A stretch of 63,970 nucleotides of DNA, filler included, from Bipalium vagum (lineage: Eukaryota), in the NCBI GenBank assembly GCA_037834085.1. It is 3 parts of 3 records of this genome, joined end to end, with 100 filler letters (N's around TTAATTAATTAA, not from the genome) between each part and the next. Parts side by side here need not be neighbours in the genome. Positions count along the whole stretch, not along the records: positions 1 to 25,327 come from JBBMKC010195275.1; 2 more parts are not named here. One strand, 5' to 3'. The notes below the pieces were generated by a model. It ran no database searches and was not told where the DNA came from. It saw only the letters and a list, made by a program, of their open reading frames with translations. Position 1 is the stretch's first letter. Every line of letters starts with the position of its first letter. This document shows, piece by piece, positions 4,300 to 45,400 of the stretch. The position numbers and the translations under genes are program-made.

Positions 4300-4860
4300 A
4301 TTAACATAATTTGCCTTTATTCCCATATACAATAATGAATTAATTGCTCAAGACATGTTAAATGAAAGAATAACTTGCTTTGAGAACTTTGAGAGAATAT
4401 ATTTAAATATTTCTTTCTTTTATTTTCAGTTTCGTCAATTTCCAAAAAAATCTTTTCTTCCTTAAAATAATTTATTAATTTGGATATATTTTACTCTTAA
4501 TCGTTGTAATATGAATATGTCCTTGTCTTTGATTTAGAAATGGGGGGGTTTACCAAAATATCTGAACATTTTAATTATTTCAGGATTATTTAATTTGTAT
4601 AAGGAGTTATTACCAGATACAAAGTGCTTTGACAGCAACTTCAACATATTTGTCATAAGCTCCTGTTATATATGTTTGTTCAATTTTTTTGAAACTTCCT
4701 GAATCAAAATTCTTTTCAATAAATTTATAATACTTTTACTTTTCCGATGAGCATCTACATAATATTTTTTTCGTGATTCACGAAACAATCACAAATTTTG
4801 CACTATAGCTTGTTTTGTAATTGATGTAAAAAATCTTGACTGTTGTAGGTATTGCAATAA
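4300..4860 (-). mobile_element. hAT transposase remnant (CGGBP1-like N-terminus)
   Basis: Minus-strand translation gives CKICDCFVNHEKKYYVDAHRKSK and FVSGNNSLYKLNNPEIIKMF, resembling the zinc-finger and 'SANIPLxKLNN' motifs of CGGBP-related hAT transposases. Heavily decayed. Confidence 0.5.
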
Positions 4861-4956
4861 TAATTAATTATTTCCTTAACACTTTTCTTTTCTTTTAGCA
4901 TTTTAAAAATTTTTTTAATTAAAATTTTCTAATTTTAAGACTTTTCAAATGCTATT

Positions 4957-5210
4957 TTAAATGGCATTTATTGCAAAATACTTGCACTTAAGGTATGATA
5001 TACTATTACCCTTCTTCAATACGACATCTGCCAAATGCGATGGTACAGTTTTGTAAAGGTTTTGTATAACTTTCGGATCAATAATTATAGTCTCTGTCAA
5101 TGATTTTAATGAGGCCTGTATGACTAGTATACTGCATTTCGTCATAAATTTTAAATTCCAATAAATGCCAAACATTTTCTGTTAATAGGACATACGGAGT
5201 TCTAAGAAAC
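4957..5210 (-). mobile_element. Tc1 transposase C-terminal fragment
   Basis: ENVWHLL followed by QNLYKTVPSHLADVVLKKGNSISY, a typical Tc1 C-terminus. Confidence 0.65.
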
Positions 5211-5299
5211 TTGACACTTATTATTTATTGCTATAATTTTATTTTTATACTATTTTTTATATTATCAAACCCAATTGAATAGATTATTATTAGTACTGA

Positions 5300-6240
5300 T
5301 TTATACAGAAATTTCATTTTATATTACGATATTTATTAAGCCGAAGACATTCAAGACTTTTAATTCAGATTAAATAGTAGTCCTTCTTTCTTGAATTTAT
5401 AGTCAGATATAGAGATTTCGATACCTGACATATCAGCAAATGTGTTTTACATAAGTATTTATCTAAATACTTTTTAAAAAGATAATCCGTTGGAGCCAAG
5501 TCGGGTAAATATGGAAGATGCTGCAAAACATCATTATCCAATTCACGTAGCTTTTAAAAAGTTTTCATGGAAACATGTGGTCGAGCTTAAATTGGAGCAG
5601 AATTACTCCTTTTCTGTTGACTAATGAAAGCTGTTTATTGTTACATTTTTGGTGTATTATTTCAATTTCTGAGTAATATTTGTGGGCTGTGATAGTGTCA
5701 CCTGCATTTAGAAAAGAAGAGTGTGTTAGATCAGCTATAAACTAACAACTGTTATCATAGTTTTTTCAGGTAAAAATCCTGTTGTTGGAAGTGTTTTGTT
5801 GCCTCAGCAACATCCAATCATTGAGCCGAACATTTTCTATTTTTAAAAATTTTTCTTCGCATGTTATTATGGAATTAAAGAAATTGTGAGTCCTTTTGCG
5901 AATCAAGAATGATTTTCAATTCTTAGGAATCAATCAATAAATGTGGTATCCATTGATTTTACTTTTTTACTTTGCTAATCTCTTTCAAGTAGCACTAAAT
6001 TGTCATGGTGCCAACTTTGAATTGTTTTGCAATTTCTTGAACGGATTGAAAGGATTCTGTTCATCATTTTCTTGCAAATCTTCGTTGTAATTACCAACAT
6101 TGAGCCTTCCAGGGTTTCATAGCTGTATAGTACGACCATTAGTCGAATGTTGTTCAAATGGCGAATTAATGTTGCGTGTTGCTTCTGATGCGATATGTCG
6201 CAATTTCCACTCACACTAAAAATTTATTCTCATTTCTTCT
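5300..6240 (-). mobile_element. mariner remnant
   Basis: Minus-strand ARPHV...LQHLPYLPDLAPTDYLF (YSPDLAPSDY motif) near 5480-5590. N-terminal HTH-like segment in an alternative frame of ORF 5975-6214. Confidence 0.75.
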
Positions 6241-7399
6241 TTTGTAAATCAATACATTGTTTATTTAAAACAATTTGAATATTTGATTTATTTAAACAAC
6301 TTACAATATATCATACTGTTAAATTTGACCTTCAAAATGAGAAAAAATATTTTGCTATATTAAATATGGAATGATCTACTACATTTTTAAAATACCGACA
6401 GAAATCGGACGTTTCATATTATATAACTTAATATTTTTAAATTTAAAAATAAATAAAAATATTAATTTGTTTTAATGTCATTTAATTTTTATTAATTTCA
6501 CAATGAAAATAAAATAAACCTTTTGCACTAAAAGATTCTTTTTTCTTACAAGTAATAAAGTTAGATTTTTATGTACATTTGTGACCAAACTTAATCATTA
6601 TTATAACTGTCAACATTATTTAAACTACAATTAGTTGCGGTTAATTATGTAAAAGAATAATTTTAATTTTTTAATTACCAGTAATTAAGTAATTAATAAT
6701 TTTTAATAAATAAAAGTAACCGTTTATTAAAAATTAAAAAAAACTTTCAAATTTTTCTCAAGAAATAATTATAAAAATAAATTATTTTAAAATATAAAAC
6801 TAAATATTTTGTATAATTTTAGTTTTAATTCTTTCACACTTGTTTGAAACAATTTAATCTCACTGAAGTTGATTTATGCGATTTATCGAAAGATACTTTG
6901 AGAAGAATCGATTATGTCGGACATCAATATTTGACCCAGAAGAAAAGAGTATAATGGAGTGTATTTATAGATGTGAACCATCAAATGTTAAGTGTTAATT
7001 ATTTTACCATAATGAAATATGACGTTATTATTAAAAATTCATCATTTCATAGTATCATTGCCATACTTTCTCGGTTGTGTTTCCTCTTACGGTTATCACT
7101 GAAATGTTTTACCCATTTTGGTGGAAACATAATGATTATCATAATTTTAGTAACTTGATTCAATTAATAGGCATAATTCTGTGGAAACACTCAGTTTGGT
7201 GAGTTTATTAAATAACAGTAATGTGTTGTGAGATAAATTGAAAATTAGTCGGAGTATGTAGCTCCAGACGCGTCCAGATATAAATTAGTAAAGGTTTAAG
7301 AACAAGTCTTGAATAAGTCTTATTTATTATCTTTGTTCACATAGTTTTTGTTGTTGATTTTTCTTTTTCCTCAGGTCTCGAGACCATTTAGTTACTGTC

Positions 7400-8053
7400 G
7401 AGGGACGTTCAATGCGGAAATCGTTTGATATTTCGATAATTACTTATCAAAGTAGATAAAATGTATCGCATAAAAGAACCTGAAAAGCACAGTTCGGGTT
7501 TTTTTAATATTTTTTCCATATTATGAGCAATATAATTATCAAAAATAATAATATTACAACTATCTCAATACATTTGTCAGGACAATGTACCTTTTCAAAA
7601 AATTAAGAACATTCAAAATGTAATCGTAGAAAATTGACATGATTTAAGGTTTTTAATTCCATATACTCCACAATTTAACCCTATAGAAAATATGTCCAGT
7701 AAGTGGAAAAATCACATTAGAACTAGTCAATTCCAAAGAACGGAATTGATTTATATATTTAGATTGAAAATAGGTTCAAAATAATTACTACTACACAACT
7801 TAAAGACAACATTTCGGAACAAAGCGCTATGATCTCAATTGACTTATGCCAAAAGTTATGCAAAATTCCAAATAATAGCCCAAACTTGTAAGGTTACCAG
7901 AGGCGGTCATTTTAATGACATCATATTTAAAATATAAAATTTTGTAATATCTGTGTTTAAAAAGATTGTATAAATAAAATTACTTGGCTTTCTAGTTTTT
8001 ATGTACGGAGAAATAGCGACTTAAAGTAGTAAAGCTTCTTTTGGAAGACCCTG
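7400..8053 (+). mobile_element. Two juxtaposed Tc1/IS630-superfamily C-terminal fragments
   Basis: DNVPFQK...FLIPYTPQFNPIENMSSKWK (about 7580-7710), then RGGHFNDI and a TIR-like end ttttggaagaccctg followed by TA. Confidence 0.6.
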
Positions 8054-11000
8054 TATATATAAGTGACATCTTTACCTTTTTGATTTTACCTGCATTCATT
8101 TTTTAAAGGTTTGAAATTGAAGTTTAAGCCCTGTATATCATTCTTTGCTTACAAAAATAATTATTTATAAATTATAAATTTCTCATAATTAAATCTGTTA
8201 GTTTTGGATAAGTATTTGCTTTTGAAAAATTTTACAGAAATTAATGAAATATTCATCTTGTACATTTAGAAGTCAGTTCATTTGACACGCCCAAAATGTA
8301 CAGTCTCTTTAAAGCGGTTATTGAAATTGTTATATTGATAAGAATAATTAAGTTTCACAATACATTAAAAGTTAATATATTAATCACATTGTAGGGAGGA
8401 GCAAATTATCTGAAAAGGTCTAACGAAATGTTAATCAATTGAAAACTTGAAGAAGCATAATGTTTTAAATCATGTACTTCTTATCTAAGTCAACACTGGT
8501 TATGAATGTTCACAACGATACTTCAACTGAAATAAACAAACAAAAAATAGAACACTAACGAAAAAAACAAATTCCAATCAACTTCCAACTGAAATGTTTC
8601 TTTATTATTTAAAAGGTCAAAAATTTATATTTTATGAAAATTAAATTTTATTTTTTTCTCAAAAATATAATTTTTCAAAGACAGACAAAATGATAAAAGT
8701 TCAGTGTTAATGAAATTTAATTAAACACATTTTCAAAAATAAAGTAATAATAATAAAATTAAAAATCATTGAGATCCTAAAAAAGATTAAGTCAACAGAA
8801 AAATTAATAAAAATAAATAAATAAATGTAATAAATAATGCTTTTAAAAACAATTTACCAAAAATGAATTTAAACTGATTTTTAAACCAATCGTAAGCGCT
8901 AAGCTGTTTTCTGCAATATAATATGGAATTAAACAAGAGTGTAATGAATATCAATTAAATATCAGACTTAAATTACATTAATTAATTAACGCTGTTTAAA
9001 ATTGATTACAAAAAATAATATTTCTTACATAAAATAGATTACAGAAATAAAAGTAATTAATAAACTTCAAAATATAACTTTGCATTATAATATAAAGTGT
9101 CCTCGAAACTAATATTATATGTTTTAATTATGCATTATCATAAAAAACGAGGTCGGTTAAAGATACTCAAAATTCATTGAAATATTAAAGAAGTTAACAA
9201 TGATAAAATAAAAATGATAGAATTGTTTAAATAACACAAAATTATTTTAAAATGCACCACGTATTTCACTCATAAAAATAGCAATATTATTATATTCATG
9301 ATTGTGATTATTTAAACAAATTTGGGAAAATTTAGGTTTTTATGACGTCTCTCAATACTTAAAATTCTTTTATATTAAATTTAAAACAAATAAAACTTTA
9401 AAAAAAGTTTCTAATATTGCTTAAAATATACATTATTTTCATTAAAAATATTACTTACTTTAATATCAATTTTTGTCCTCAAATAGCTGACGCATCCTGT
9501 ATATTTGAATGATTCTCCCTCTTAAAGTAGAATATCGAGTTTAAGTTGAAAGATATTTTTTATATATTAATATTAAAATTATAAAAATGGGTTATATTTA
9601 ACTATCTTTAATATTATATATAGTTTTTTAAAAATCACAATCTCTTATTAATTTAGAAATAATAATTATTATTTAAAAAATTAAAAGATTTCGTTTAGAA
9701 AGTATACTTATTTATACTATCTAGTGGAAAAATTTATTTATTTATTAATTATATTTATTCAATGATTAAAATAACGTTGCAAATATTTATATTTATATAA
9801 TTAGTAATTAATTCTATTTATTTGATTTTGATAATATTACTGTAGATGTGATGACTATTTATATGGAGAGGTATATCCATCTCCATATAATTTGAAAATT
9901 AATTATCAGATAAAACAGGTATAATAATATCCACCTTTCAATATTTTAAAAATAATTAAAATATTTTTATACAAATATAAAAAGAAAATTTTAAAAATGT
10001 AAATGAGAAAAAAATTGAATAAAATTGTTTATATTTGTTAATCTTAATTTTCACAAGTCACGTTCATTAAAGGTAAAAACCAAATAATAACAAACTCAAA
10101 TCAAAAATATTATATCAAATATTTATTTTTTTATTTTTATTTTCTTAAAAATATATTTTAAAAAATGCAATTATTTATCAATATAATTTTAAAATTTTCA
10201 CATTTTCATTATAATTACTTTAAATTTGAAAATATATTTCTCATTAAATTCATAATTATGGAAATGTTAAAAGTTAGTTCAAATATGGTTTCAGAAAATT
10301 GACAAAATTTTAAATAATTAAATAAAAAAGGTTTAAAATGAAATAAATTTTAAAAACCGGCTAACCTGTCACCGTTTAGAAACTAATTTTATCAACCTAT
10401 AATCTTGGTCCTTAACATTTATTTTATCATTTTATTATACTTCTAAATTATATATAATTTGTAAAGGAGCTTTCATTGGTTATATGTTCTGATTAAATTA
10501 TTCACTTATTTTTTTAAAAGATGGGTTGGTGAAATTTGCTTTGCCTTAATATATTTGTTAAAATCAAAACACGCCAAAAGATTTTTTGAGAATAATAATA
10601 CTATTGATTCAAATTTTTATGAAATTGGGTATGAAATATATTGTTGGGTCATTCCTTTATTTATAACTTACTCCAAACGTTTAGACAGAGATTCCTCTTT
10701 TGAAAAAATATACAAGTTTTGACTCAAAATTCTTCAAACCGATCTGACAGGGGCACATGATCCTTAGAGGAAGTTTCAAATTTACTTTGTAGTGGAGATC
10801 AATATTGATGATAATCTGATGGGACTAAATCGGCGTATTTGTCGATTAAATTAACATCTCAAAACCGAATTTGAAGATTTCTGACTATATCGGTATAAGT
10901 ATTTGGAGTCTGGTATTGTGCTGTTGCAAAAAACCTACAAATGGGTTTTGATATCGTTTTCCTCAATTTCATGATAGAAATAAATTTCAGGGAGTTCATT

Positions 11001-12852
11001 ATCTGATTTTTTAAAGTAATTTTTCATTAAAAAAACTCCTTTCTACTTAATAAATACTAAGAATTTATTTTCGTGATTAAGATCTGTATCCTTAATGCAA
11101 ATTTTGATTTATCGCAGTTTCATTTTATGATTAAGTCATGTTTTATACCCATTTGTAATGCTTGATAAGATAAATTGATGATCTGCTGTTCAAATTTAAG
11201 AAAGTCACTTTTAACGATGGAAAATACTTCGATTTTAATGTGTCTGTTTGTAATAAGATAAATATTAAATTATTTAAAGTCCAAAATTTTTCCACTCTTC
11301 TAATAATAAACAAAAGACGTGAAATCGGTAATAAAATTATTATATTATAACTTCAATTCATGTGAACAAATCAATAACATCTTAATTTATCAATTATTAT
11401 TTCAAAATAAAGTATTTTAATTAATTTAAAAAACACCTTGTATAACAAAATAAGAAAAGAGATAATACCAAAAGCTTTAAAATAATAGTTCAGGCTTAAA
11501 TTTTCATACATATACCATTATTTATTACGTTGATACAAAAGAAATGTCGGATTTTAAATATCAACTTTCAGTGAACATAAAGATTTTCATAATAAATTTA
11601 TTTATCAAAATAACATCCATTAGAATCAACACAACACAACGTAAAAGTTTATTTGTTCCGGAAGCTTAGAATTCAGAGAGTCTTGATTAGACAAGATAGC
11701 TGAAGACATTTTTGGTATCATCTTGGCTCTTGAACATTTTCTCGCGCAAGTCCTGTTCGAGATTATAAACAACACTCACATATTTATTATAAAAATAAGT
11801 AGCAGATTCTGGGCTTTAAATTGAAACAAATAATGACATAATAATTTAATTTAAAACTTATTCACATATCAATGATAAACTAAAACAATACTTTAACCGA
11901 CAGTTCTTTTGCACAAACCTAATGTATATAAATTTCTGTCGACATTTCTTTTGTAGTCTTTTTCTAATATTTTTATCCCGGTTAACTTAAATTATCGATA
12001 AAGCCTATTTTAAAATTGTTAAAATAATCAAAAATTGCTATCATTTTTATTATAAAAATTCACATTATTTTTTATCTAAATTTCATTTATATTCAACAAA
12101 TCAAGAAAGAGCAATATTAATAATTTTATTACTAATCATATTAAATTTAAACTATAGACATATTCTATATATAATTAAATTAAATTAGTTATATTTAAAT
12201 TTTCCATCCTTTTATTTAATTAACAAAATAAGTATTGAACGACGTTCTTTTATATTACATACAATGATGCCTAATGGATTCTGTAGAATTCATGGTGAAT
12301 CAAAGAAGGAAATCGACAATATTTTTTAATATGATTTAGAATGCACGGCACTTTTGCTTTTACTTAACGCTGGTCTCCACTATACTTCATTAAAATTAAA
12401 TATTTTATAAATTTAAGTTCTTATAATTTTATTTATTTTTCTGGCTGATCCCTACCAATTTCGCTAGGAATTACTTGAGAAACATCAAATTATTGTAAAC
12501 TGATTATTCGATTTTAACTGCAATAAATAAATTGATTTTCAGTTTTTGTCGATGACAACCTACTCAAGGATCTCAAAAGACTATTTTAATCTGCATATTT
12601 TATCTTTTTTCTGTAGACTGTTTAAAATTTAAGGCATATTTCATTCAAGAATTTCAGCAAACTGTTTTCTTCCCCTTCGTAACAATTTAACACCGACCTG
12701 ACAGATATTTGATAACTTTTATTCTAAGAAAAATTTATCAATTTTTTCAAATTACTGATGTTTTAAGAGAAATTGTTGAATTTTGTAATTTAACTGTTGA
12801 TTTTACATAATGCGGATTTTAAAAAACAAGTTCTTGATTTCGATTTATATAT

Positions 12853-13370
12853 CGAGGGACCCAAAAAAGCAGAGTTTTTAATAAACCATATATTTTTATA
12901 CTTGAAAAATATTATTTATATAATCACTGAATGTTAACAAATCATTATTAAACCAATTATAATTATTAAGCAAATTCATTATATCTTGTTTAAATCTACT
13001 AATCTAAAGGGAAACAATCAACATGGAATCTTCGTGTAGAAGAATAATCACCCCCTTTCTAGCAGCAAAATTAAATCATGTCTATCCCACGATATTCTTC
13101 TGACATGAACATGATTGATTTCTTTATATTTCAGAATTATGAGTTAAAGAGAAAAATGAAAATTTTCGAATCCGTGCAGAAAAAAACTGTTCCCAGAACA
13201 GTTCTTGGAAGACCAGATAACGTGCACCCTATCTCATGAGCCGAACCGATCTGAATAGCATCATTTTGCTTAATAGTGACTATTTAAAGTGAATATTGGT
13301 CATAAAACGTTGGAGTAAATGTCCGATTTCTGGAATATATTTTTTTAAAAGTTTTGTTTTGGTCCCTTAC
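12853..13370 (-). mobile_element. Possible short mariner deletion derivative
   Basis: Weak inverted ends (cgagggacccaaaaaa / ttttggtcccttac) and an SGLPRTV (GRP-like) motif on the minus strand. Confidence 0.3.
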
Positions 13371-13791
13371 ATAATAATTATTTTTGAGATTATCATTATA
13401 TTATTAAATATTTTTTTGATAATACATTCCAAGTAAATACTTTATATTATGAAAAAAGTATCAATCACATAATTACTTTAATTTAATTGGCTGACTCATT
13501 CTGCATTTTAATGTGTGAACTAAATATTTAGGTTACAAGTACCATGTATAGGTTTTTTTATATTTTTCACACTTACATTTTAATATTTCAAACTTTAAGT
13601 ATTAAAATGAAATTTCTATCTTTTATGATTTTAATTTATGTTAATTAAAGTAGACAAATTATAGCCCGAAAAATATTCATATACCACAGTAAGAACTGAA
13701 ATGTGAAAAACATCAATCAATAAAATTTTGAGTAAAAGCTTAATACTTTTAATTGATGAGAAATAAGAACATTATTTGATTTAAATAAAAT

Positions 13792-16700
13792 ATGGATTCC
13801 CTGTTACCACAAGAGATTATAATGAAAAGGTACGGACAAAGATTTATAATATAAAATAATAAATTTATTTGAATGTTAATTTAAATAATTTTAAATAATT
13901 ATTTTCATTTTGCTTATATAATTTTACCTAAACTTGTTGACAAAATTCATCGTATATGATTTTATCTGTGATTTCTAAGACTATCGTATTTTGCTATTTA
14001 TTTTTAATCATTTATAATTCCTTGAGTATGTATACTTGATCATTTTTAAGTAATTGTTAAATAACAGTTTAAGGTCACTTGGAAACAGCAATAACAAAAA
14101 TCAAATTATTTTCCGTACGCCAAAGACTTTTTTATAAATGAGGCATTCTAAAAATTATGATAAAAATAATTAGTTTGAACGACACCAATAATGAGGAAAT
14201 AATTTTCTCAATTACTTAAAACAGGTTTAAGTTTTAAAACAAAGCTCTTACTAGAAGACCTTAATTATTTTTGATTTTTAATAGAAAAATACCTTCTGTT
14301 CTGATTTCTTAGATGATAATAGCCAATAAATTAGTCGTAATAAAAATTTACCTTCAATTATTAAAATGCTAATCATTGTTCCTTCTGGTTTTGGTAAAGT
14401 ATAATCATTATGTGATAAATATTATAAACCACAAATTATTAGATTATGATAAAATGATTATCTTTTTTGAAAAATAGCAAAAAGATACAAGTGGAAAAGA
14501 CTTAAGGGAAAACTAAGATTTCTTGAACGAAACTCATAATCTCAATACCAGACACCTTTTAATGAAGACCAGGTATATCATTATAATGATATTATAGTGA
14601 AATATAATGAAATCAAAAAATTGCAAAATACCTGTACAAAATCAAAGTCATCAAGTTATGATTATAAAATGAAGTATTTTTTAACTCCGTAAAGTACTTT
14701 AAGAAGTGATTATGTCATAGTCCGCTTCACTAATAGTATATCAATATTGATTGGTATCTACATTGTCATATTCAGTATAGCATGATTGAGAGTCAAGGTT
14801 TGTGGAATTCACTTTTGTCGGAATACAATCAAGCAAAAAAGAGAAATGTGACAATGAATTTTGAAAATATTAATAAAAACCTTAAAACCATACGGATTTT
14901 TATCTCCTCTACTTTTCGAGATTTTCATAATGAAAGAAACTTATTAGTAACGAAAATTTTTCCCAGACTTCGAGAATGGTGTCAGAATCACGGTCTTCAT
15001 TTAGTTGAATGTGACTTAAGGTGGGGTATTCCAGACTATTCGTCTTCTGAGGAAACATTAATAACTTGCTTTGAAGAAATTGATAAAGGTCGACATGAAT
15101 GTAATAATATGAATTTCTTTCTTGGCTTAATAGGCGACAGATTTGGATGGATTCCTGAATGTGGTCAAATTTCTGACGAGACGAGATTAAAGTATATTAT
15201 TTTCTATATATTATAATTTCTTCATTAATCTGTTTATTAAATTAAAATTATATTTAATTATTAATAAATAATCAAAATATTATTAATATATAATTAATCT
15301 AACTCAAAAATACGGATTATTTCTTTTTACTTATATTAATATTCCTTTCAAGACATATTCTAATCAATTAAAAGCGCCAAAGTTTCTATTGATAAACCTT
15401 TACTTATCTTCTTTCGTGATGCACTCTAGATTACAGAAGTTTATATATTTATGTGAAACGGTATTTTCATTTTAATAAATGTATTAAAATCAGCTCTGTT
15501 TTCAGAACCCTGCAACTATTGTTTATAAATTTTCGGGTGAATGCATTTTCTTTCTTCATTAATAATGGAACTTAAATACTACAGATCTCTTCACATACAT
15601 ATTTTCGTAAAATATCCTGTACTTTATATGGAAAATTATATAGTCTCAACATAACTTAAACTCATAGGTCATTCAGTATCATGTCGTCAATAATTTTAAG
15701 TGCTGTTACACATTTTTAATAACAGAGTAAATGAAAAAATTATTTTACAAAATATTTGATAAAATTAAACAATGAATAAATATATTTAAACGAATTTTTA
15801 AAAAGGTTTTCGGAATATTTGTGATAATTAAAAACCATTTACATTTTCCAGAGAGTCATATTTTAGAGATTTAAAAAGTTCTCACTGTTTCTGATTAAAT
15901 CTAAATTATAAAGCACAAAAATTAAAATAATTTGATTGGTTTAAATATTTTAATAATCATACAGAAATTTGAATTTCAATTGATAAAATTTATTTTTGAT
16001 ATTCCTTGGTATTTCTATTTAATTTTGGTATATCTGAAGTCGATGCCAGACTGTCTGTTTGCGATTATTGGTTAGAAAATGCCAAAGAAACTATTTTTAT
16101 GTTGTCTACCAGGCAAAACTTGCGTCAATGACAAACGTTTCAATTTTGAAAGTCTAATGGGTCTAGAAATAACAAAAATTATATATAAATATTTCACATG
16201 ATTTCTTACAAACTAAGGCTTAGACTATAAGGCTTTCAACTTCGCTACTTCAGTATTGCAAAAGAAAAGATTTTTGAAGACAGTCACTGTGCTCTTAGTG
16301 AATATTTTTTCATTTTTAAACTCTATTGATTATTTTCAACACCAGAGGTTAATTTTTGAAATATATATATGGTGGAAAGCAAAAGATTTTTTAATTAAAC
16401 CTTTTAAAACAAGATAAAATTATTACAAAAGCATTATACAAAGATATAAATTGATGCATAAAAAATCCTGGGAGAAGAAAGTTTTGAAAGACATTGGTTA
16501 GATATATTCTCCACCTATTAAGATAGTTCCTGAGACTTTTCCAATATGAGGAACACTAAATTGTAACAAATTTTTCTAGGCACATTTAACGTTAATTAAA
16601 AAAACTGGAAGAAAAATAATGAACAGACAATTCCTTTTTCAAATTTATTGAAATCACAAGTGCTATCTACAGATAGATTTTGTAACAACTGAAATTTAAG

Positions 16701-19700
16701 TTGACAGAATTGGCCAACTGATATTTACATTAAGGTTTCATCATCTACCATCTGCAGTCGTTTTAATTTTTAATTTAATTTTTTTTAAATTTAATTTCTG
16801 TCAGACCCGAAAATTTAATTTCGAAAAGATATAGCTATCCAAATTAAAAAAGCCTTGATTGCCTTATTATATTCAAAAAATTATTATTTAAAAAGTTTTG
16901 CCTGGTAAAGGTACAGTTTTAAGCTACATATTTACACAATACAATATAGTCATTCTCTTCATAAACACATCTCTGTCTCCTTTTTGTTAATCCTGTGAAA
17001 ACAGCCTTGTAAAATATGGAACAGAACTGCCCTTTTCTTATACAATGATCCAAAATCTTTTATAGTCTTCATTATAATTACATTTGCATGAACCGAATTG
17101 CTTTATTGCCCTATTGTTCTGTTCATTATTGGCTATACTTTCATCTTTATCCTCACTTTTCTTAGATTTTCTGATAAATTTAAAATTTTGATTTTTATAA
17201 TGTAATTTAGTTACAAATTGATAACGAACCAATACTAGGTCACTTGCATACCTGCAGTCTGTAGACACTACACCACATTACGCATTATACTTGTGTATTT
17301 ATGGACTTTAAGTCCATATTTAAAACTAAGACTAAGCATGAATAAGGTGATTTTAATTCCCTCAGTACCCTCAGAAGTTTTCGCGGCCCCGAATTTGCAA
17401 AACTGCATACATTTTTCATTATAGAATTTTTGAAGAATATAATAGATTTAGTATTCCCAATATCATATCCCTTTAATAGAACTAGTCATTTATAAGTTAC
17501 AGAGTCAGAAATATTCATTTTCTTGAAAATTTCTTGAATACAATTCTTTTCTTTTATTTCTGATAAGTTCAAGTTTTTCTTTTATTACATATTTGTTTCT
17601 ATATTTTTCCTTTCAGATTCTATAGAGGTGTGCTTTTTATAATAGATAATTTTTCGATATTTATACATAAACTATTTTTATTACTTCCTATATGTATATT
17701 ATATTATTTATTTATTTTATTCTATGATATTGATTGATTGATGACTCTGTCATAATCAATTATCTTTCATAATTGTCACAATTATTTCTAGGGTTTTAAC
17801 TATATAAATATTTTATTATTAAAATTTTATTAGTTATTTGTGAACAAGTTTTTATTAATAAAAGAAAATGGAAATTAGTGAAATATCGAAAAAATAACAT
17901 TTAATTATGATTTAGAAAATTTTAAAAATTAAGAAAAAAAATCAGAAAACTTAAGATATTTATATTTACCCATTGCTGTTTATTTATACTTAATATAAAA
18001 TATAAATTATAAAATTATATTTATATAAAATGTATTTATATAAGTTAATTACATCAAGAAAAATATTCTTTTGAAAGATTATTCAGACTTAATTAAATAT
18101 TTTTATTTAATAATACATTTGAAAATGCTTTTGTTAATTGTGTATTAATAATTGTAATGTTTACCTAAAAATATTTTTGAACTTAGAACATTTGTATTGG
18201 TCTTTCTCAATCGATTCTGATTCTTCTGAAAAATAATTTTATTTAAAATTATAAAATTCCTTTTCGGTTTGAAAATTATAAGATTTTATTATAAAAAGTG
18301 ATCGATATTGTTTTTAATTCTAATCATTTTTATTCGACCAGATTAAAAATTAATACTTTATAAGAACCAATAATACATTCACATAGATCATGACCTATGA
18401 AATGGTTGAACGATTCATATGTTTTTTTATCTTAGGTTCAAGTATCACTTTATTTTCTTATTTTCTCATATTATGAAAATTAGTATTAACAAAAAAATAT
18501 TGAACTGAAATATTGAATTAAAAGAATTTTATTAAATCAACAATTTGAAACTAGTACTAATATTTATATTTTTCCTTATTGATCGCATTCATTATTTTAA
18601 ATTCTTATTCTCTGGGAAATGATTCGGAAAACCCAGGCAATTGATAGGTATGAATTAATAGTGTTGAATTAAAGGCATTATGGAAGAGTAAAGGAAGTAT
18701 AAATGAACCCAACCATCTCCAGGAGCTTGATTTAGAAATTCCTCAACAATTCCTTTTTTTCCGCTCACTGTCTAACTAAGTGAAAGGTATTAATTTAAAA
18801 TAAGAGGAAGGCCTTAAAACCTATTGATCATTTCTTAAATAAAGGTTTTCACAATCTGTTTGTAAGATCAGAAAAGGTCCTAAATAATAACGGAAATTAC
18901 ATTATCGATGGATTTTTCATTATTAATTTTAAATAAAATGTTTTATTGATTATAAATATATATTATTCAAAATCAAGAAAATTTATATAAGATCGTTCTA
19001 TAAGTCTTTATTGTTTTTCATAGACTATTATTTTATGTTGTTTTACTACATTTATTTGATATGCTAATCATTTAAAATTATATGTAATGAAATTGTATTA
19101 TTCATATTCATGTACTTCTTTATATAAACTTAATCAATGAGTATTTTGGTGATGGCCTTTGTAGGAGAAATGATAAGAACATGCATGCTACATTTTTTAA
19201 ATTCAGATATTACATTAAATCATAAAAAATCAATTTTGAAGCAGTGAGAGGGTTATATTTCTTTATACTTTGATTAATCATTTCTTCGGAAAAAATATTT
19301 AATATTTCATCATGTAATGATTAAAACTCTTTTTTGAAAGAAATAAGGACTAAATATTATTGTAAAAACAAATAAAATATTTAAAATTAATAAAATCTTA
19401 TATTAATATAATACAAAAGGATTGATAAAATCATTAGTTTGAGATATGTTTACAATTTCAGATTTTTAAATTGAGCATGGTTGAAAAATGGTAATTAATA
19501 AAATATTAATTAATAAACACTTCTTTAATTTATTTCCTTTATTTAGTAATCACCATTTACACAGAAATAGATATAATTATTTATTTTTATCAAAAAATAA
19601 TTAAATAAAAATGAGATTGAACACGTCCTGTTCTCTCATTAATTAAGAAAACCGGAATTTGGAAAGTCTATTATAAATCTCTATTACAGAATCTCTGTGT

Positions 19701-22700
19701 TACAGTATCAAATGTTCTGAATGCAAATTAAAATAATTTTGTAATTGTAAATTTGTGTTAGTGTACTGGCTGCCAATTTTTAAAAATATTTTATTGTTTT
19801 TATGAATTAATATCAGTGATTCATTTCGATTATCTGGTAAAGGGAGAAATGATAACAGCAGAGAAATATTACCTAGATATTGATATTATGCAAAAAAAAT
19901 TGAAAAGAATATCAATAGAAATGGTCAAATTCTTTTGCTAGACAATGCCCGTCCACACATAGCAGATCAAATCATGGATAAGCTAAAAAGCCTACATTAT
20001 GAAATTCTGATACATCCTTCTTAGTCGCCTGATCTTTCGCCAACTGATCTCCATCTATCCAAACATTTACATAATTATTTGAAAAGTACTGAAAAGATTT
20101 CAGAACTAAGAGGAGAATTTGAACAGTTCATTGCCTTCAGATCTGTCGATTTCTATCGCAAATTAATGAAAAATTTGCCAACTCGTTGTCAAAAATGCAT
20201 AAATGCTAATTGTTTTTATTATAATCAGTAAACCTTTTATTTAGGCTGATTTATGCTGTTTTGATATGAATTTACAAAAAAATTGCAAAACTTTCTGAAC
20301 AGCCTAATATTATTCTATATTTTCATTTTATAAATACTTTGATTATTTGATTCCAGGATTATTACTTATGTGACTTTATATGAAATTGAATTCCGAGAAT
20401 TACTTTTAAATTAATTTTTACAATTGAAACCCAGTTCCAGATGACATGTTAAGTTCAACGCTGAAATCCGAAATCTTTCTCTATCACAAAAAAGACCTGC
20501 TCTTTTTATTCCTTGAACTTCTCATGTACAGATTATTATGTTTTTAAATATCTGAGAAAAGCGAAGCAATGTTAAAACTGACTTCAACAATCTCGTGATC
20601 TTCAGAATATATTACACTTCTGTTTTACAGGGTGACCAGAAAAAAAGGGACAAATTTTGCTGTGTTCTTAAAAGAAACTTTTTTGTTTTATTAATATACT
20701 TTTTTGTTTATTGAAATCTAGGATCGTGTTAGTATTGATTTTTTTCTTTTTTTAGATATTGATCATATTTTGTGTAATTTTTAAATGTCAAATAAACGTG
20801 AGATAATTTTTGAATTTTTTCCTTCCGGAAAAGTCAATTTAAAATTAGTTAATTGTTGAATGTCCCAAAAGCAAACAGTCTCTAACGTCATTCCACGATC
20901 CAAAGAACTTGGTCATATTGGTCGGCGTCCAGGAAGTGGAAGGAAACGAACTATCAATATCTCTTACAATCGCCAACTCATTAGTAAGAGGATCAAGCGA
21001 AATCCTACACTCTCCGTAATAAAAGTCACCCGTGAGAATGGGCTCAAACGTGAATCTGCTCGAATGATAGGAAAAAACGAGCTGCAGCTCGGGCCTTACA
21101 AGTTCCAATAAGTTCAGCTCTTAACGGATAAAAACAGACGAGTAAGACTCCAAAGATGTCGAGTTCTGAAACTGTAAACCGCAGGTCAGCGTTGGGAGCG
21201 AATTCTTTTCTCAGATGAAAGGTTATTTACCATCGAACAATCCCATAATCAACAAAATGATAGGATACGGTCACCAAAGGCTACTGCGAACTCCAAAATT
21301 ATAGAACACCACCAAAATACAGAATCTGTCATGGTCTGGGGTGGTGTCTGTGCAAGTGGCAAAACTCCTCTAATTTTCGTGGATAAGTGAGTGAAAATCA
21401 AACAAGATATATATATCGACGGGACATATTGGAATCACTTCCTTGGTCCAAATAGCATTTTAAGAATGAAGAATGGATCTTTCAACAAGACTCCACTCCA
21501 GCCCATAAAGCCAAAAATACTCATAAATAGTGCAAATCAAATTTACCGGATTTTATCACGTCTCGAGAATGACCGCCATACGCCCCGGATACTAACCCGA
21601 TGCACTACAGTATATGGTCTATTTTGGAGAAAAGAGTATATGCTGAGCGTCACCAAAATTTGGAAACACTGAAAAAATCTCTGAGTCGAGAATGGGACTG
21701 TTTGTCATCCAAAGAGCTGTGGCCAATTGCTGAGAATTCTACAAAACGTCTGGCAAACTATTTTCGCGAAAAGGGTTGACATTTCGAAACCAATTGAATA
21801 TATAAATTCAAAATGATTCATTTATTGTTAATTTTCTTATTTTCTTCTTATATTTCTTTTCTTTAAAAAATTATAGTTAAAAATATGTCAGGGCTTTTCT
21901 GGTCACCCTGTATATGCTACTTGTAATAATTATGTGCGAAAAAATATTTTTAAACTAAAAAAAATTTCATATATTCAATAAAAATGTTCATCAAAAATGA
22001 CACCTGTGGTTGTCAGATTTATTTCTAACTTATCTTTTTCAGATATCAGTGGATCGAAGGAAGCTCAGTAACATTAATGGAGATTTTGCATGGAATCATT
22101 AGGACCCTTACACCAAATGCCCTTATCATGATACGTTCACAAGAATTTTTAGAAGATTTGCCCAATAACTTCAAATCAGATTTCATTGAAACCAATTCAG
22201 TGCCAATAGTCAATTTGAAATTGTTTAAAGATTTTTTGATGTTGAAATTTAGAAAAAACGCAACTTTGAATTTTTATAATGTTGAATACGATGGAATAAT
22301 TCATGATAAGCTTTTAGATAAAAATAGAGTAACCTTTAAGAAATTAGAAGAATTTGCTAAATATGTTGAAAACCATTTCATAAAGTGCATTAAGAACAAT
22401 TTCATACCTTTTATTAAGTCTCCAATATCTGCAGATAATATGGACGAGGTTCACGAATATATGGTCGATTGTTTAGTTAAACCAAATACAATAGGAAACG
22501 CAACATTTTATAAACTTTTTAATCATCTCAAAGACTTATCTGTGAACCTTAACCGAAACTCAAATTCTATATTAATTCTTTCTGGACAAGCTGGAATGGG
22601 CAAGTCGACAATATTAGCACAATGTGCTAAAGAGATAAAGAAGTTGGCAAATTGTGATGCCTTTTTTCACAGTTTCTCATGCACTTCTAATAGCAAATTT

Positions 22701-24110
22701 AATTCTACGGTTGGAGACAGATTACTTCGATTTTTATCAATTGAAAACCATATGGATACTCAGACAATAGAAGAAAGAATGGAAACTATTCTCAAGGCCT
22801 TAAAATATGGTCCGAAGAGAAAAGGAAAAGAGATCTATTATATTTTTTTAGATGGAATTGACGAAATGTCTTACGACCATAGCTTACAATGGATTCCGGA
22901 CTGTACCTCAGCTACAATTGTTATGGTAATCAGTAGCCTAATTGATCCTGATAAAGATTCATTCTACTCTCTTTTAACAAATTCCCAAAAATGTATAAAT
23001 GAATTCTCAATAGAATCTATGGAAAGACATGAATTACTCAGTATGGTTAACGATTATCTTGACAGTTTTGGAAAGAGGCTAGATTCCGATCAAATAAGTA
23101 AACTGATGAGTTTTAAAAACTCTAACAATCCACTTTGGCTGATTTCAGCTTGTGAAGAGCTTAGGATCCATGGTGACTATTCCACATTGACGAAACTCAT
23201 CCTATCTTTGCCTCCTACTATAGCCGAGTTAAATGAGATGATTATTAAACGATTATTAAGACAGGATTCGAAGAATATTTTGAGAACATTTCTTCAATTA
23301 CTTGTGATTTCTAAGTCTGGTTTATGGGAGAGCTTAGTAAAAGATATGTTGGCCACAAGATTAAATTATCCCGAGACGGTAAGTCATTGTCTGTGGATTG
23401 ATGTTAAATGGCAATTTAAAGGGTTTTTACTATTTGAGGCTCAATGTCTACCACTCATCAAATTACGGCATAGAGTAATAAAAGAATCTATTGAAAAAGA
23501 ACTGTCCATGGGCAACAAATTTCAAATATCCCTGCATAAAGAAATGGCTTTATTTTATGAAAAGCACTTAAATAATTCAAGTCATATGTTTCTTCCAGAT
23601 TACATATATCATCTTGTCAAATCCAATTCTCGCAACCAATTGATAAGGTTCATGAGAACTAGAAGGTCATGGGAAATATTTAGACAATCATATATTCGTG
23701 GAATGATAATGTTAAGTATGCGCTGTAATAATAAAACTATTCACTGTTCCTCAAAAAAAGAAGACGAGTTGGTCATGTGCAATTTTTGTGCCCATAAGTC
23801 TGGAGAGTTATCCATCCATACATCGAACAGGAATTGTTGTTTTTTCTGCGGAAATGTGATTTTCAACAATAACATAAAAACAAAATTATTTTCCTGTCAG
23901 TTTCATAAGCAATTGTCTTGTCAAAAGAAATGCAGTTTATGTGAAGGGGTGACATCGAGTTTGGGAAGAGTGAAACTTCAAGTCTGTCAATTGTGTCAAG
24001 TCGGCAATGAATTTGGAAAGTGTGGAGTTCTCGTTAAAGAAGAAGACATTCTGTTTGATCAACAATTGGAATTCAGTAAAGCTGTTTATAAAATTGAAAA
24101 CTTTATCTAA
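13792..24110 (+). CDS. DUF4062 + STAND/NACHT NTPase (TEP1/NPHP3/NWD-like) with C-terminal Cys-rich zinc module; 3 exons, 838 aa
   Basis: Exons 13792-13829, 14781-15191 and 22043-24110 join at GT-AG sites with matching phase 2/2 into one 2517-nt ORF. DUF4062 signature IRIFISSTFRDFHNERNLL...ECDLRWGI...GDRFGW, then SVTLMEI. Walker A GQAGMGKST (about 22584), Walker B YYIFLDGIDE, NPLWL motif. Exon 1 is the least certain. Confidence 0.88.
19800..20307 (+). mobile_element. mariner 3' half, in intron 2 of the STAND gene
   Basis: LLLDNARPHIA and HPS*SPDLSPTD motifs; TIR-like end aaaactttctgaacagcctaa followed by TA. Confidence 0.85.
20628..21910 (+). mobile_element. DD37D (maT-like) Tc1/mariner element, full length but disrupted, intronic
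   Basis: TA-flanked TIRs cagggtgaccagaaaa / ttttctggtcaccctg. Motifs GSGRKRT, FSDERLFTIE, VMVWGGV, FQQDSTPAH and PPYAPDTNPMHYSIW. Stops and frameshifts present. Confidence 0.9.
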
Positions 24111-25256
24111 CACAACCGTCATTCAAAATTTATCAGAAATAATATACAATATTTTATTTTCGAAAAAAGAAAAATGTCAATTAATAATGCAAAAATGCTT
24201 ATTTAATCAGTAGTTATATAAAATGTCTCAGTAATTACTGTTAATTAGTTATGAAATTGCAAGAAATAAAATAAATAAAAATATTTTTAAACTGATATTA
24301 TAACTAGATATGAATTAAAACAAAATCGATAACTAGATGGAACGGTGATAAATATTTTTGATTAATTTTCACAATTATTATCATATGAAATATATTATAT
24401 AGAAAATCATTGGCCATAAATTAAAGATATATATTTGGAAGGATAAAAATAAAACGCTGATACGGTAATAAAAAGGAAATATAAGTGTAAGTATCAATCT
24501 TTTGTTGATATATTGTTAATCAAGTTTGCAAAATCTGTTATTCATAGAATAGATATGGAATTTTCCTATTTACTTTTCTAAAGAATTTTTTGACTTTCAG
24601 AGCAATGGAAAAGTAATAATAATAGAGGACTTCTATTCATGTGAGGAGATTTGTATATCAATTAGACTCTATTGAAATTTAGACAATTTGATCAGCCACC
24701 GAGTTTTGAACTCATGGCTATCAGATAATCATTTTCCTTAAATCATTCTCATAAGTGACATAAAAGATAAACGGTATTTTATATTTTTCTGTTAGAATCC
24801 AAACACCATGTGGACAGAATATTATGAGATCGACCTATCTGGAAAAAAAAAGAATTTTTAATATGAAATTTCGAAAAGAATTTTGTACAGTCAAACTGGA
24901 AAATAAACTGAAGAAAAATATCTTTTAAATTAAATCCTTTAAAAAATTAATTAATTTATCTTAATGAGGCGTAAAAAAATGTTCTATTTACATCTTTTCG
25001 GAAAATAATAGTACTAAACGGAATTATTTGGTTTTAACTATGAGAATGACCCATAAGTTTTCAGAGTTTGTAATATAATTTTGTTATTGGATACAAAAAT
25101 AATAATGATCCAAAAATAGATATTGACAACAGAATTAAGACTTTGGTTTAGTATTCATCGTGTACGTTCATTTGTCAGCTGTTCTTAATAGAGTAAAATA
25201 TCTACATACTCTAATGTATTTTAAGATATTTAAGAGAAAGGTTTCATATTGTGATA

Positions 25257-25327: not shown

Positions 25328-25427
25328 NNNNNNNNNNNNNNNNNNNNNNNNNNNNNNNNNNNNNNNNNNNNTTAATTAATTAANNNNNNNNNNNNNNNNN
25401 NNNNNNNNNNNNNNNNNNNNNNNNNNN
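25328..25427. other. Scaffold gap with artificial six-frame-stop spacer
   Basis: 44 N + TTAATTAATTAA + 44 N = 100 nt. Confidence 0.97.
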
Positions 25428-27606: not shown

Positions 27607-28146
27607 CAGGATTTTTCAAAAATGTATACACATTTAATTGAAAGTGTGAACTAACATTGGTATGTAGCATTTCATGTAGCAGCGCCCTAAAGTTTGGTGA
27701 ACAGAATCTTTTGAGATTCCTAGCTCAAAACTCTTGCTTGTATCACAGATGTTTGTGGACGTCGATTAAACAATTCCAGTATTCTTTCTTCCTTGGTAGT
27801 ACTTCTGGATATTCTCCGTCTTCCAGAACGGTTTGTGTAGACATTATTAATAGTTCCATATTTTTCGAATTTATCCTTTATTTGACTGATTATCAGTCTT
27901 GTTGAAGAATCTATCTGAAATTCTTTCTTGAAAAGAGTCTGTACCTCTTTTATGTTTTCAAACTTGAAGTAATTTTTGAAAATAAATTTTCGCTGCTTAA
28001 GTTCAACCTATCTTTTATGATTCAACCTTTCATGAATCATTTTAGATGTTTAAAATTTCTTACCAGTTATTGGAGTATTTAAACAAACTATATAACAAGT
28101 AATAAGGATTTATAATTACTTAACCATTCATATTTAAAGTTTCTAT
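27607..28146 (-). mobile_element. Internally deleted Tc1/mariner derivative
   Basis: TA-flanked imperfect inverted ends caggatttttcaaaaatg / catttttgagacactctg. RSGRRR motif on the minus strand. Confidence 0.45.
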
Positions 28147-41004: not shown

Positions 41005-41104
41005 NNNNNNNNNNNNNNNNNNNNNNNNNNNNNNNNNNNNNNNNNNNNTTAATTAATTAANNNNNNNNNNNNNNNNNNNNNNNNNNNNNNNNNNNNNNNN
41101 NNNN
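41005..41104. other. Scaffold gap with artificial six-frame-stop spacer
   Basis: 44 N + TTAATTAATTAA + 44 N. Confidence 0.97.
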
Positions 41105-42474: not shown

Positions 42475-45400
42475 TCACAAAACCGATATTTTATCTTGTT
42501 TCGAGCTTCTATACCGTTTCGAATGGTTTGGACGCTTCCGTTTTTCTTTTCTCCATTCCAGGAACTCTGTGTCTCGAAGCAGAGCCGTATTTTCTTCATT
42601 GACATTGGTTTCTGATGAGCTGCTGTCTAGCTCCGACAATTTTGACTGGATTGAACCCGGGAAATATTGATGTATCGAGTTTGGAAATCGGTGAAAATGA
42701 CCACGGACCCACTTGTAAAGAGTAGTATAGAGATTGGGAAATTTCAGGTCGATATAGTCCGCTAACCCACTCGGGTTACTGTTGAATAGGGTTTTTGATA
42801 GATCTATAGGCAGTTCGTGAAAATGGTTTCTTTTGTTTCTGAGCGCTCTAGCAAGATTTGACAGGTTCTTTGACTGCTCGACAGAAGACAGATAGAAAAA
42901 TCAATAACACCAATGCAAATGATGAGATTTTACAAACGCCAACCTTGTAACTCCTCTGGACTGTGAGATTCTCAATCAGCTCCGGTTCCAAATCATCTGT
43001 CCACTTGTCGGGAAATACGTCATTGCTTCTTTTGTCCAAAGAAGTCTGCAAAGTTGGATTGTTTTTCTCTATGAAATCTGAGACGTCCTGAAAACCAAAA
43101 AGAAAAATAAACCAATAAACAATCTCCTAAGCCAAAAAAATAACATAAATATTAATAATCAATAATTTTTTTTGCTATTTTTGTCAAATATCAACAAATC
43201 TATTGATCATTTCTGCGTGTATGATAACCTCGCGAATAATTTATTGATTCTCCTTCCACAGATATTCAACAAAAAAATTAATACAAAAGACTAATTAGTT
43301 CATGGATTTTTTTTTCGGTAACGGTATAAAGAAACTCATAGGACATTGGTAAAATGTTGTAGATGCCAATGGTGCATATTTTGATTCATAAAATTTTTTA
43401 TAATGACTTATCGACTTTTGATTTGTGATACGAAAAAGAAACAACACTTCCCCCAAACTAATATTTTATTCTTTTCACAACAAAATCTTAATTATGAACT
43501 TCATAAATGATAAAAAGAAAATTTGATTTTTTTTGCTTTCAAAACTTTTGAGATCACATTTCTCCAACCAAGTATTACTTAGATTTTTTTCAAATAAAAT
43601 AACAGAATTTATTTCGTAAAGATATTTTCATTTGTTAAAAACTGATCATAATAAAAAATATTAATTATTATTATTATTATCAAAAATTAAATTATAAATA
43701 TCATAATTAAAATGGTTGTAAAAAATTTCCAAAATAATTATTGAAATTTTTATATTTTTATTTCAATATAAAAAATAATTTTTGAATTTATTACGTTGAA
43801 TATGTTTTAAATAAATAAATTTTAAAATAAAATAAATTTTAAAAAGTTTAAATCATTGGTCAAGAAAATTTTTTTTTCGATTTTAATATTTTTTCGTATT
43901 TAATTAACTGTTTTATTAATTACTTATTTGTTGATATTCAATTTTTTAATATTTTAAACACAATGATCAATAAAGTTTTAGATCTGAAACATCTATGAAA
44001 TTTGACTTCTGTACATAAAAAAGTAAAACTTCTCTAAATCCACTCTATAATCGAAACACGGCACTTTGGGAAAAAGCAATATTATGCACTCTCAATAAAT
44101 AACAGAAAAATTAGACAAGATTTAATTTAAGTTACTTTTCATTACTTGAAAATAAAAAAAGTTACTTAAATAAATATTGATAAAAAACTTAGATTAAATC
44201 TTAACCTAAAAATTATTCGGATGAAAAATACCTGAAAGATAAAAAATTTTAAAATCAATATTTTGTTTTAAACAATCAATAAATATATTACATACAAATC
44301 TTAAGAACTATAAAAGAATTTTGAACTTCAAATTGAGACACTAATGAATGGAAAAAAATAAAAATGAGGCCCTATTGGTGAAATATTATAATTATGTATT
44401 ATAAATTACAAGATAATTTATAATAACATTTTTATAAAATGATCAATACAATTTTGAAAAATTGAGTTAAGAATTAAAATAATATAGATTCTAAAAATCG
44501 ATTTTAAATGTATTAATTAATTTTTTTCTACGATAATTTCATTAAATAATTATAATCAAACAAATTCAAAGTGAAACATTCTGTTTTATAAAAATCGTTG
44601 AAATACTAAAAAATCATTTTATTGAGATAAGGATAAAATCAACGTTCAGCTTTCAGTAGATAAATAGAATACTTACACAGAGAAATGACAACTTCTTCAA
44701 AGATTCCCAAAATAAAGGACCACAAAGAATTTCTTCTGCACAAGGTCTCTTACTCGGAGATGATTCAAGCATCATGGAGATGAAATACATGACCATGTAG
44801 TCTGTAGACCATATCAATTATTTTTATTATAATAAATCGCTGACAATGTTAAAATAATAATAAAATATTTCAAAAGTTCAATATTATTTATCTGAACACT
44901 TAAGATTATTGCTTCTACTTCAGAGCTAACACAAAATAAAAAATGAATAACATTTTGAAAAAATATTTTTTAAACAATTTTTTAACATAAATCGATAATA
45001 ATTTCTTTGAAATATTAATGAACAAATTTTTGCTGAATATTTATTAGCATAAATTTGAAACAATGAACTAAATCTGCTTCATGTGTAGTTTTTATATGGG
45101 TTAAATAATTACCATAAATTTGAAAACATGGTGTTGTATAATGTACAAAATATGACGAAAATGAGATTTTCACAATTATTGTTCGATTTCAGTATTTTTT
45201 TACTTCAAAATTTACTCGAAATAACGTTTTAAAATATTTGCATATTCTCTATAGCAGAAAGATAGCACCAGTTTCTTAAAAATAATCTTAAAAGAAAATT
45301 GATTTCAGCCAGTTTTTTTAAATATATTATGCAATCAGAAGTAAGAAATCACATTTTTATTAATACCTACCGGTTTGGAATACATAAAAGTAAGTCTTAA

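Follow-up and report, generated by a model that had tools for sequence, protein, structure and literature searches.

TEP1, NWD1, NWD2, TTC41 and NPHP3 have a TIR-like DUF4062 head, also called TeTIR or NIR, directly before a NACHT ATPase of the STAND class (signal transduction ATPases that have numerous domains). It was not until 2026 that TeTIR/DUF4062 proteins were demonstrated to be NADases (PMC13174449; 10.64898/2026.09.21.753143). Their C-terminal part is described as containing either WD40 or TPR repeats (10.64898/2026.09.21.753143), and the available parts of the 2026 papers name a trigger for no eukaryotic member. PHF5A, a subunit of the spliceosomal SF3b complex, contains five CxxC motifs and two single cysteines, whose pairing is 1+4, 2+5 and 3+ends within a trefoil knot; Rds3 has been described as its only structural relative (PMC5458519). 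Here we describe a predicted gene in a 63,970-nucleotide stretch of the Bipalium vagum genome (assembly GCA_037834085.1; hereafter the window, to which all coordinates refer), the product of which joins a TeTIR head and a NACHT ATPase to a C-terminal zinc domain of predicted PHF5A-like fold. A TeTIR-NACHT family whose sensor position is occupied by a domain of predicted PHF5A-like fold is real and conserved, and no account of it was found in the literature searched. No publication joining a PHF5A-like domain to NACHT or DUF4062 was found by title or abstract, with figures, bioRxiv supplements and subscription journals outside the coverage. The terms 'zinc' and 'PHF5' do not occur in the available text of 10.64898/2026.09.21.753143, the supplement of PMC13174449, or the available passages of 10.64898/2026.09.04.749371 and 10.64898/2026.06.25.731849.

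Domain order and predicted zinc ligands of the Bipalium protein

The predicted gene has two coding exons, encodes 825 residues, and is located entirely on the + strand. The protein is organized into the DUF4062 (TeTIR/NIR) head, the NACHT ATPase, a helical region, and the zinc domain:

14782..15191, + strand: predicted coding exon 1, with the ATG, a short helix and the N-terminal half of DUF4062/TeTIR
14899 (F902), 14935 (R914), 15019-15027 (RWG loop), 15067 (C959) and 15139 (R976), + strand: TEP1-equivalent residues of exon 1
15192..22042, + strand: phase-2 GT..AG intron of 6,851 nucleotides, inferred from homology
22043..24110, + strand: coding exon 2, with the second TeTIR half, NACHT, helical region, zinc domain and stop
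22080..22082, + strand: Glu150, the equivalent of catalytic E1008 of TEP1, by alignment to PDB 11gz chain residue 115
22569..22892, + strand: NACHT nucleotide-binding core, with Walker A GQAGMGKST at 22584-22610 and Walker B IFLDGIDE at 22842-22865
22893..23723, + strand: remaining STAND module, with NPLWL at 23127, which the TPR sister subfamily shares to within about 20 residues of the first zinc ligand
23724..24023, + strand: predicted PHF5A/Rds3-like triple-zinc domain, with ligands C at 23724, 23778, 23787, 23838, 23847 and 23895, H at 23904, and C at 23931, 23940, 23985, 23994 and 24021
24024..24110, + strand: C-terminal extension of 28 residues, and stop

The segment 22893-23723 presumably comprises helical domain 1 with NPLWL, a winged helix and a helical arm, as in general STAND anatomy. 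Both signature domains exceed their Pfam cut-offs, DUF4062 with 37.5 against 24.7 bits and NACHT with 28.7 against 26.7 bits (E 1.4e-6; NPHP3_N also matches), which upholds the chassis resembling nucleotide-binding leucine-rich repeat receptors (NLRs) that an initial annotation of this DNA had proposed. The head is directly upstream of NACHT in one chain, in Bipalium by the predicted splice and in full-length homologues by direct observation. The Walker A motif is intact, and its G and K are present in 99/99 rows of the family alignment described below. Walker B reads mostly DAxNQ in the family and DGIDE in the Bipalium protein.

The only clear PDB match of the head is the TIR-like domain of TEP1 (11gz; E 1.2e-15 for one half and 4.4e-4 for the other). 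TEP1 numbering was obtained by an offset of +893, fixed by the residues R908, R954 and R976 named in PMC13174449. The Bipalium protein keeps the equivalents of F902, S905, R908, R914, R942, W943, C959, R976 and E1008, and shares with the TEP1 group the catalytic glutamate, the RWG loop, C959, and the substrate arginines. Mutagenesis has shown that F902, R914, R942, C959, R976 and E1008 are each required for TEP1 activity, and C959 has been linked to TEP1-type enzymes (10.64898/2026.09.21.753143). All six required residues are present in the Bipalium protein and in 93 of the 95 rows that cover them, and the catalytic glutamate in 98 of 99. R908 is uncommon in the family (4/99), in agreement with the report that it is dispensable (10.64898/2026.09.21.753143). 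By analogy with TEP1, the head is likely to be an active NADase, and the 'nucleotide-processing' effector of the initial annotation can be identified more sharply as a TIR-like NADase of predicted activity.

In contrast to the TEP1 group, the Bipalium protein ends in a 100-residue triple-zinc domain instead of a WD40 or TPR array. Pfam detects neither repeat in the open reading frame at E 1, and the stop follows 28 residues after the last cysteine, compared with a C-terminus 3-11 residues past it in most homologues. In TEP1 orthologues, TROVE and vWA domains precede the TIR-like domain and WD40 repeats follow NACHT; none of these three was found in the open reading frame of the window or in the scanned full-length homologues.

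The open reading frame of 677 residues (22077-24110), which also contains NACHT, terminates in the motifs CNFC, CFFC, CQFH, CSLC, CQLC and a last cysteine, located at 23724-24023 and separated by 16, 15, 8, 14 and 8 residues, as the initial annotation had described. The first spacing that it gave, C-x10, has to be replaced: the conserved first ligand is C 23724, 17 residues ahead of CNFC (C-x17), whereas C 23745, which gives x10, is private to the Bipalium protein, in a column where 99 aligned rows have G in 32 cases, V in 16, A in 7 and P in 6. These rows comprise the window model, 96 matches to a hidden Markov model (HMM) of the tail, P0009 and P0017. A survey of homologues, which had been recommended, found all 12 ligands in 97 of the 99 rows, from a choanoflagellate to amphibians, with one ligand missing from P0098 and the last three from P0115; this share is partly a product of selection, as the rows were chosen by tail-HMM score, and the presence of the tail in 96 of 107 non-TPR rows is a less biased figure. 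The third pair is CxxH in every one of the 99 rows. When the 12-ligand pattern is defined loosely, the six frames of the window contain it once, and 10,000 shuffles of the tail not at all. Outside the ligands the domain diverges fast: its mean pairwise identity is 30% and the mean share of the top residue 0.32, compared with 50% and 0.61 for the TIR.

Predicted fold and family of the zinc domain

AlphaFold2 predicted the tail of the window protein from 19 aligned rows with a predicted local distance difference test (pLDDT) score of 87.0 and a predicted template-modelling (pTM) score of 0.81, and that of the Xenopus homologue from 97 rows with a pLDDT of 94.1 and a pTM of 0.87. When the models were compared with 48,161 representative solved chains using VIA-align, each reached a Z of 2 or more with only two chains, human PHF5A (5zya_D) and yeast Rds3 (5gm6_J). 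The window model aligned over 82 of 85 positions with a Z of 6.3 and a root-mean-square deviation (rmsd) of 2.8 (second chain Z 5.5), and the Xenopus model over 78 positions with a Z of 6.2 and an rmsd of 3.2 (second chain Z 6.0). The aligned ranges place the first and last cysteines in register with C11 and C85 of PHF5A. Foldseek searches with both models were topped, within the best 15 rows, by SF3b and spliceosome chains with the size and titles of PHF5A, at probabilities of up to 0.98. The profile of 99 tails was aligned by hhalign to 21 PHF5A sequences, aligned from 40 intron-free metagenome-contig genes (duplicates counted; one confirmed by Pfam with 155 bits). CxxC motifs 2-5 are in register with a probability of 85 and a score of 33.2, which exceeds those of 60 cysteine-preserving shuffles (14.5 ± 3.1, maximum 24.0) and of reversed PHF5A (13.2).

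The tail domain has, in all probability, a PHF5A-like fold, as the initial annotation had proposed from the cysteine pattern, and it is predicted to be probably a remote PHF5A homologue. Outcomes that had been named beforehand as contrary, namely a RING-, LIM- or B-box-like or unstructured fold, or cysteines that are not conserved, did not occur. The domain shares with PHF5A/Rds3 (PF03660; PDB 5SYB, 5ZYA chain D, 5GM6 chain J, 2K0A) the layout of a cysteine, five CxxC-type pairs and a cysteine, which amounts to 12 ligands, and differs from it in being fused to a STAND protein, in one cysteine-to-histidine replacement, in longer loops, and in a strongly basic charge. It is not a PHF5A orthologue. 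Its identity to PHF5A in the structural alignments is only 14-22%, whereas PHF5A itself is about 86% conserved among the 21 sequences; PHF5A is a stand-alone protein with a near-invariant surface, whereas this domain is fused and has V at the position of Y36. Aromatic F, W or Y occupies the equivalent of Y36 in 31 of the 99 rows (background 9.5%), and H does so in 21. The window tail has no match to Pfam PHF5 at E 1 and stays below the gathering cut-off of 26.7 bits; one of 19 tails matched at E 0.0018, and P0004 scored 17.6 bits. Phmmer with P0004 gave a weak, out-of-register match to PHF5A (E 0.13), which we read as reflecting the internal repeat of the fold.

A search of 1.84 billion representative sequences with the last 306 residues returned 24 proteins, of which P0020 was discarded as a spurious repeat-protein match. 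With a profile built from 15 full-length members, 682 matches reached E 1e-10 or better, and the best 120 of these were analysed: 96 exceed 40 bits with the tail HMM, 13 are of the longer sister type, most of them with Pfam accessions that we take to be of TPR type, and 11 end before or inside the knot and are probably partial models or short isoforms. Among the matches listed, the knot is carried by the choanoflagellate Codosiga, by Trichoplax, Hydra, Actinia, Pocillopora, Rhopilema, Macrostomum, Lingula, Lineus, many molluscs, Priapulus, echinoderms, hemichordates and Branchiostoma, and, within vertebrates, by Petromyzon, Xenopus and other amphibians. Amniotes, teleosts and arthropods do not appear among the named rows of the best 120 of 682. 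The homologues are mostly 800-1,100 residues long and mostly labelled 'TEP1-like'. When longer proteins with a different architecture were searched for the knot, three members of the family were the only matches, which is weak evidence, with shorter stand-alone forms outside the search. In the ESM Atlas, the window tail gave only leads below 0.9 (bacterial clusters at 0.80-0.82), and the P0060 tail gave none.

The sister subfamily (P0133 of Strongylocentrotus and P0141 of Owenia, among others; annotated 'TEP1' or 'DDB_G0287407-like') is homologous to the knot family over a segment that starts with the head and stops about 20 residues short of the knot, and ends instead in 235-357 residues that we take to be of TPR type from their Pfam accessions. 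Of its 13 rows, 12 align with the knot family up to P0005 residues 737-743 and one to 709, and the knot begins at 762. The sisters thus align until about 20 residues (in one case about 50) before the first ligand, so the knot fills the sensor slot, which supports, for a TPR array, the earlier view that the tail stands in place of WD40 or TPR repeats. A quick tree of 42 rows, unrooted and calculated without the tails, places the nine TPR rows in one branch with a Shimodaira-Hasegawa approximate likelihood ratio test (SH-aLRT) value of 100. In this tree, P0127 and P0132 are labelled as knot proteins but are truncated, and the branch of the window row is long (2.79) and unsure. Given this branch and the absence of an outgroup root, no donor or order of events is claimed.

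The TPR sisters (P0131, P0133-P0144) start with MGCGxS in 13/13 rows, which we take to be a dual-acylation-type signal. An MG start is also found in 46 of the 96 knot rows that begin with methionine, 36 of these reading MGxxx[ST], presumably a myristoylation-type signal; the predicted Bipalium start has neither. The MG starts suggest, at the level of sequence, that these proteins are directed to a membrane. Many mollusc rows, Macrostomum and Lineus (P0011, P0013, P0002, P0009 and others) start with M[YF]xx[YF], compared with MG in other lineages, and a change of targeting signal in lophotrochozoans is possible.

Proposed function and alternatives

The net charge of the knot (K+R-D-E) is +4 to +14 in all 99 rows (+8.6), compared with +1 for residues 10-86 of PHF5A, and the TIR and nucleotide-binding domain (NBD) regions of the family average about -6 to -7. 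PHF5A contacts the RNA backbone (PMC5458519). The basic sequence of the knot hints at RNA or an acidic lipid as a ligand, and it fits an internal clamp on the acidic ATPase as well. Complex prediction of the Xenopus knot (730-832) with residues 50-668 and three zinc ions gave a score of 0.00, in a calculation in which the alignment was unused and the partner fold uncertain, and it weighs neither for nor against a fold-back of the knot. That the ligand is a polyanion, with RNA or an acidic membrane lipid as the first candidates, is the most speculative part of the proposal and less likely than not. We consider it somewhat more likely than not that the knot provides regulatory input. Positioned in the TPR slot, it would likely act as the sensor of a TeTIR-NACHT STAND switch: binding of an acidic ligand to the knot would cause nucleotide exchange and oligomerisation, and oligomerisation would switch on the cleavage of NAD+ by the head domain. 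The NADase activity, autoinhibition, oligomerisation, and outcome in NAD+ depletion or cell death are inferred from TEP1 and general STAND biology. The complete chain, from knot sensor through STAND switch to NADase output, appears to us about evenly poised between correct and incorrect. A wider proposal, of an ancient, pre-animal subfamily of NLR-like NADases in which a trefoil zinc knot of PHF5A type reads RNA or another polyanion through its basic surface and triggers destruction of NAD+ in invertebrates, lampreys and amphibians, is advanced with considerable reserve.

Several observations weigh against the predicted fold and the proposed sensor, switch and output. The Z scores of about 6 are middling by the note of VIA-align itself, and the best Foldseek E values were 0.029 and 0.044, with no row reaching E 0.001. 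The 19-row tail profile retrieved no PHF5A from PDB sequences at E 10 and reached an hhalign probability of 39, and the PHF5A HMM scored single tails with a mean of 3.4 bits, compared with 0.4 bits for reversed tails. AlphaFold was trained on PHF5A, so a similar cysteine pattern could bias the models. The TIR (-2) and NBD (+1) of the Bipalium protein are less acidic than the family mean. In 78 of 99 rows, N occupies the position of the second acidic residue of Walker B, which may make hydrolysis atypical. NWD2 was weak and TTC41 non-toxic despite conserved catalytic residues (10.64898/2026.09.21.753143), and NWD1, NWD2 and NPHP3 showed no activity as full-length proteins (PMC13174449).

The moderate Z, together with the lack of a significant Foldseek or HMMER match, would agree with a tail made of three ordinary zinc ribbons or treble clefs and resembling PHF5A by its cysteine pattern alone. 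Four of 19 tails weakly match a RING family (best E 0.038), and the spacers are longer than in PHF5A (median of 17 residues between the first CxxC motifs, against 3). However, readings as RING, FYVE, PHD or LIM domains were rejected with TM-scores of about 0.2 or less and rmsd values of mostly 7-20 Å, the order of lone cysteine, five CxxC motifs and lone cysteine is that of PHF5A, and cysteine-preserving shuffles score far lower in hhalign; only a slim chance is left to an unknotted tail. The initial annotation had also allowed for a decoy domain; as an integrated mimic of spliceosomal PHF5A, it would guard SF3b against pathogen proteins or splicing-blocking compounds. PHF5A is indeed targeted by microbial splicing modulators (PMC5458519). 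The homology is in register, and the excess of aromatic residues at the Y36 position provides a thin argument in the same direction. A decoy is nevertheless very unlikely, and the proposal is poorly supported: a mimic of a protein as conserved as PHF5A shares 14-22% identity with it, Y36 is not kept in the Bipalium protein, the knots are 30% alike, their charge differs from that of PHF5A, and the modulator pocket is shared with SF3B1.

If the PHF5A-like fold is accepted, the knot could still be a structural cap, or a module targeting the protein to a membrane, partner or particle, with the switch controlled otherwise. For a STAND sensor the knot is small (about 100 residues), little of its surface is conserved (the top residue has a mean share of 0.32, compared with 0.61 for the TIR), and both its basic charge and the presumed MG-type signals would suit targeting. 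Its substitution for a TPR array at nearly the same junction argues for regulatory input instead, and low surface conservation on a fixed scaffold is equally expected of a diversifying sensor, so we regard a cap or targeting module as unlikely. The head, in turn, could be inactive as an NADase and the protein a signalling or scaffolding ATPase similar to NWD1, NWD2 and NPHP3. TEP1 was the sole active protein of four human DUF4062 proteins at full length (PMC13174449), and of five eukaryotic domains one proved toxic to E. coli (10.64898/2026.09.04.749371). The presence of all six required residues, including C959, in nearly all rows and the match of the head to TEP1 alone in the PDB make this distinctly improbable, as does the activity of sponge and amoeba TEP1-like domains (10.64898/2026.09.21.753143).

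As a sensor, the knot would complete a layout of effector, STAND ATPase and C-terminal regulatory domain, borrowed from another cellular context, that recalls plant NLRs with integrated domains and APAF-1-type switches. Integrated decoys of plants are added to a leucine-rich repeat (LRR) and are recent, lineage-specific fusions. In contrast, the knot of this family stands in place of the repeats and has been stably retained across a range that reaches from a choanoflagellate to amphibians. APAF-1 is also summarised in PMC13174449.

If the proposed role is correct, the knot would be a third class of sensor in TeTIR proteins, beside WD40 and TPR repeats, and a non-spliceosomal use in animals of a fold reported as unique. 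The PHF5A/Rds3 knot would gain a second animal family, which would bear on its origin and ligand. The subfamily is compact (about 850 residues), combines a complete active site of TEP1 type with a candidate sensor of 100 residues, and is present in Xenopus, Hydra, Hydractinia, Macrostomum and lamprey, so its activation should be far easier to study in these laboratory animals than that of the very large TEP1. More than 90 database entries, mostly named 'TEP1-like' or 'TPR repeat-containing', would need re-annotation.

Gene model and other features of the window

The window is AT-rich (GC 0.19-0.36) and has few long open reading frames, as expected for an intron-rich eukaryote. The missing front end of the protein was located with the 841-residue homologue P0002, which matches 14884-15195 with 52% identity (E 5e-34); the N-terminal half of DUF4062 is thus encoded by an exon 6.85 kb upstream of the open reading frame (Pfam E 2.7e-9). 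The predicted phase-2 splice joining exons 1 and 2 yields 825 codons without a stop, and the product is collinear with P0002 (blastp, residues 35-801, E 2e-97, 30% identity). An in-frame AG at 14775 makes a further exon before 14782 possible; a family-like start in an upstream exon was sought in 1-14760, and none was found. One contig of read run X1 spans 21801-24600 without a differing letter. The run behaves as DNA, with a retained intron and flat exon depth, and may be the source of the assembly itself, so the match argues only against a local assembly error in the exon. The predicted splice joint is absent from the joints listed for this DNA-like run (15/36).

The intron contains one further feature, outside the protein:

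20610..21928, strand unassigned: decayed DNA transposon, which we take to be Tc1/mariner-like from its sequence pattern, with inverted arms of 49 nucleotides that are 73% complementary

Its depth in run X1 is 290-820, compared with about 23 in the exon, and Pfam gave no match at E 0.001 for three fragments of the intron transposon. Pieces of decayed DNA transposons are also located at 1009-1401 and 27723-28007, with one match to a Tc3-type helix-turn-helix (HTH) and one to a DUF4817 HTH. A broken element resembling long terminal repeat retrotransposons occupies 57484-63228 on the minus strand, encodes gag with zinc knuckles, and is interrupted in several frames. Parts of it match the fusion glycoprotein of Monjiviricetes (chuvirus type) at 60161-60631 (E 4e-25) and 61081-61485, and it also contains ankyrin repeats and an aspartyl protease (57484-58251); the element appears to have acquired ankyrin repeats and the glycoprotein gene of a virus. 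Adjoining it on the minus strand are exons of a putative IRE1-like gene (42478-56490), with a PQQ-type beta-propeller at 56023-56490, a protein kinase at 46284-46604 and a 2-5A-type ribonuclease at 42478-43126. The N-run stretches at 25328-25427 and 41005-41104 each consist of two N runs around a 12-base spacer, and a long AAT microsatellite precedes the first of them.
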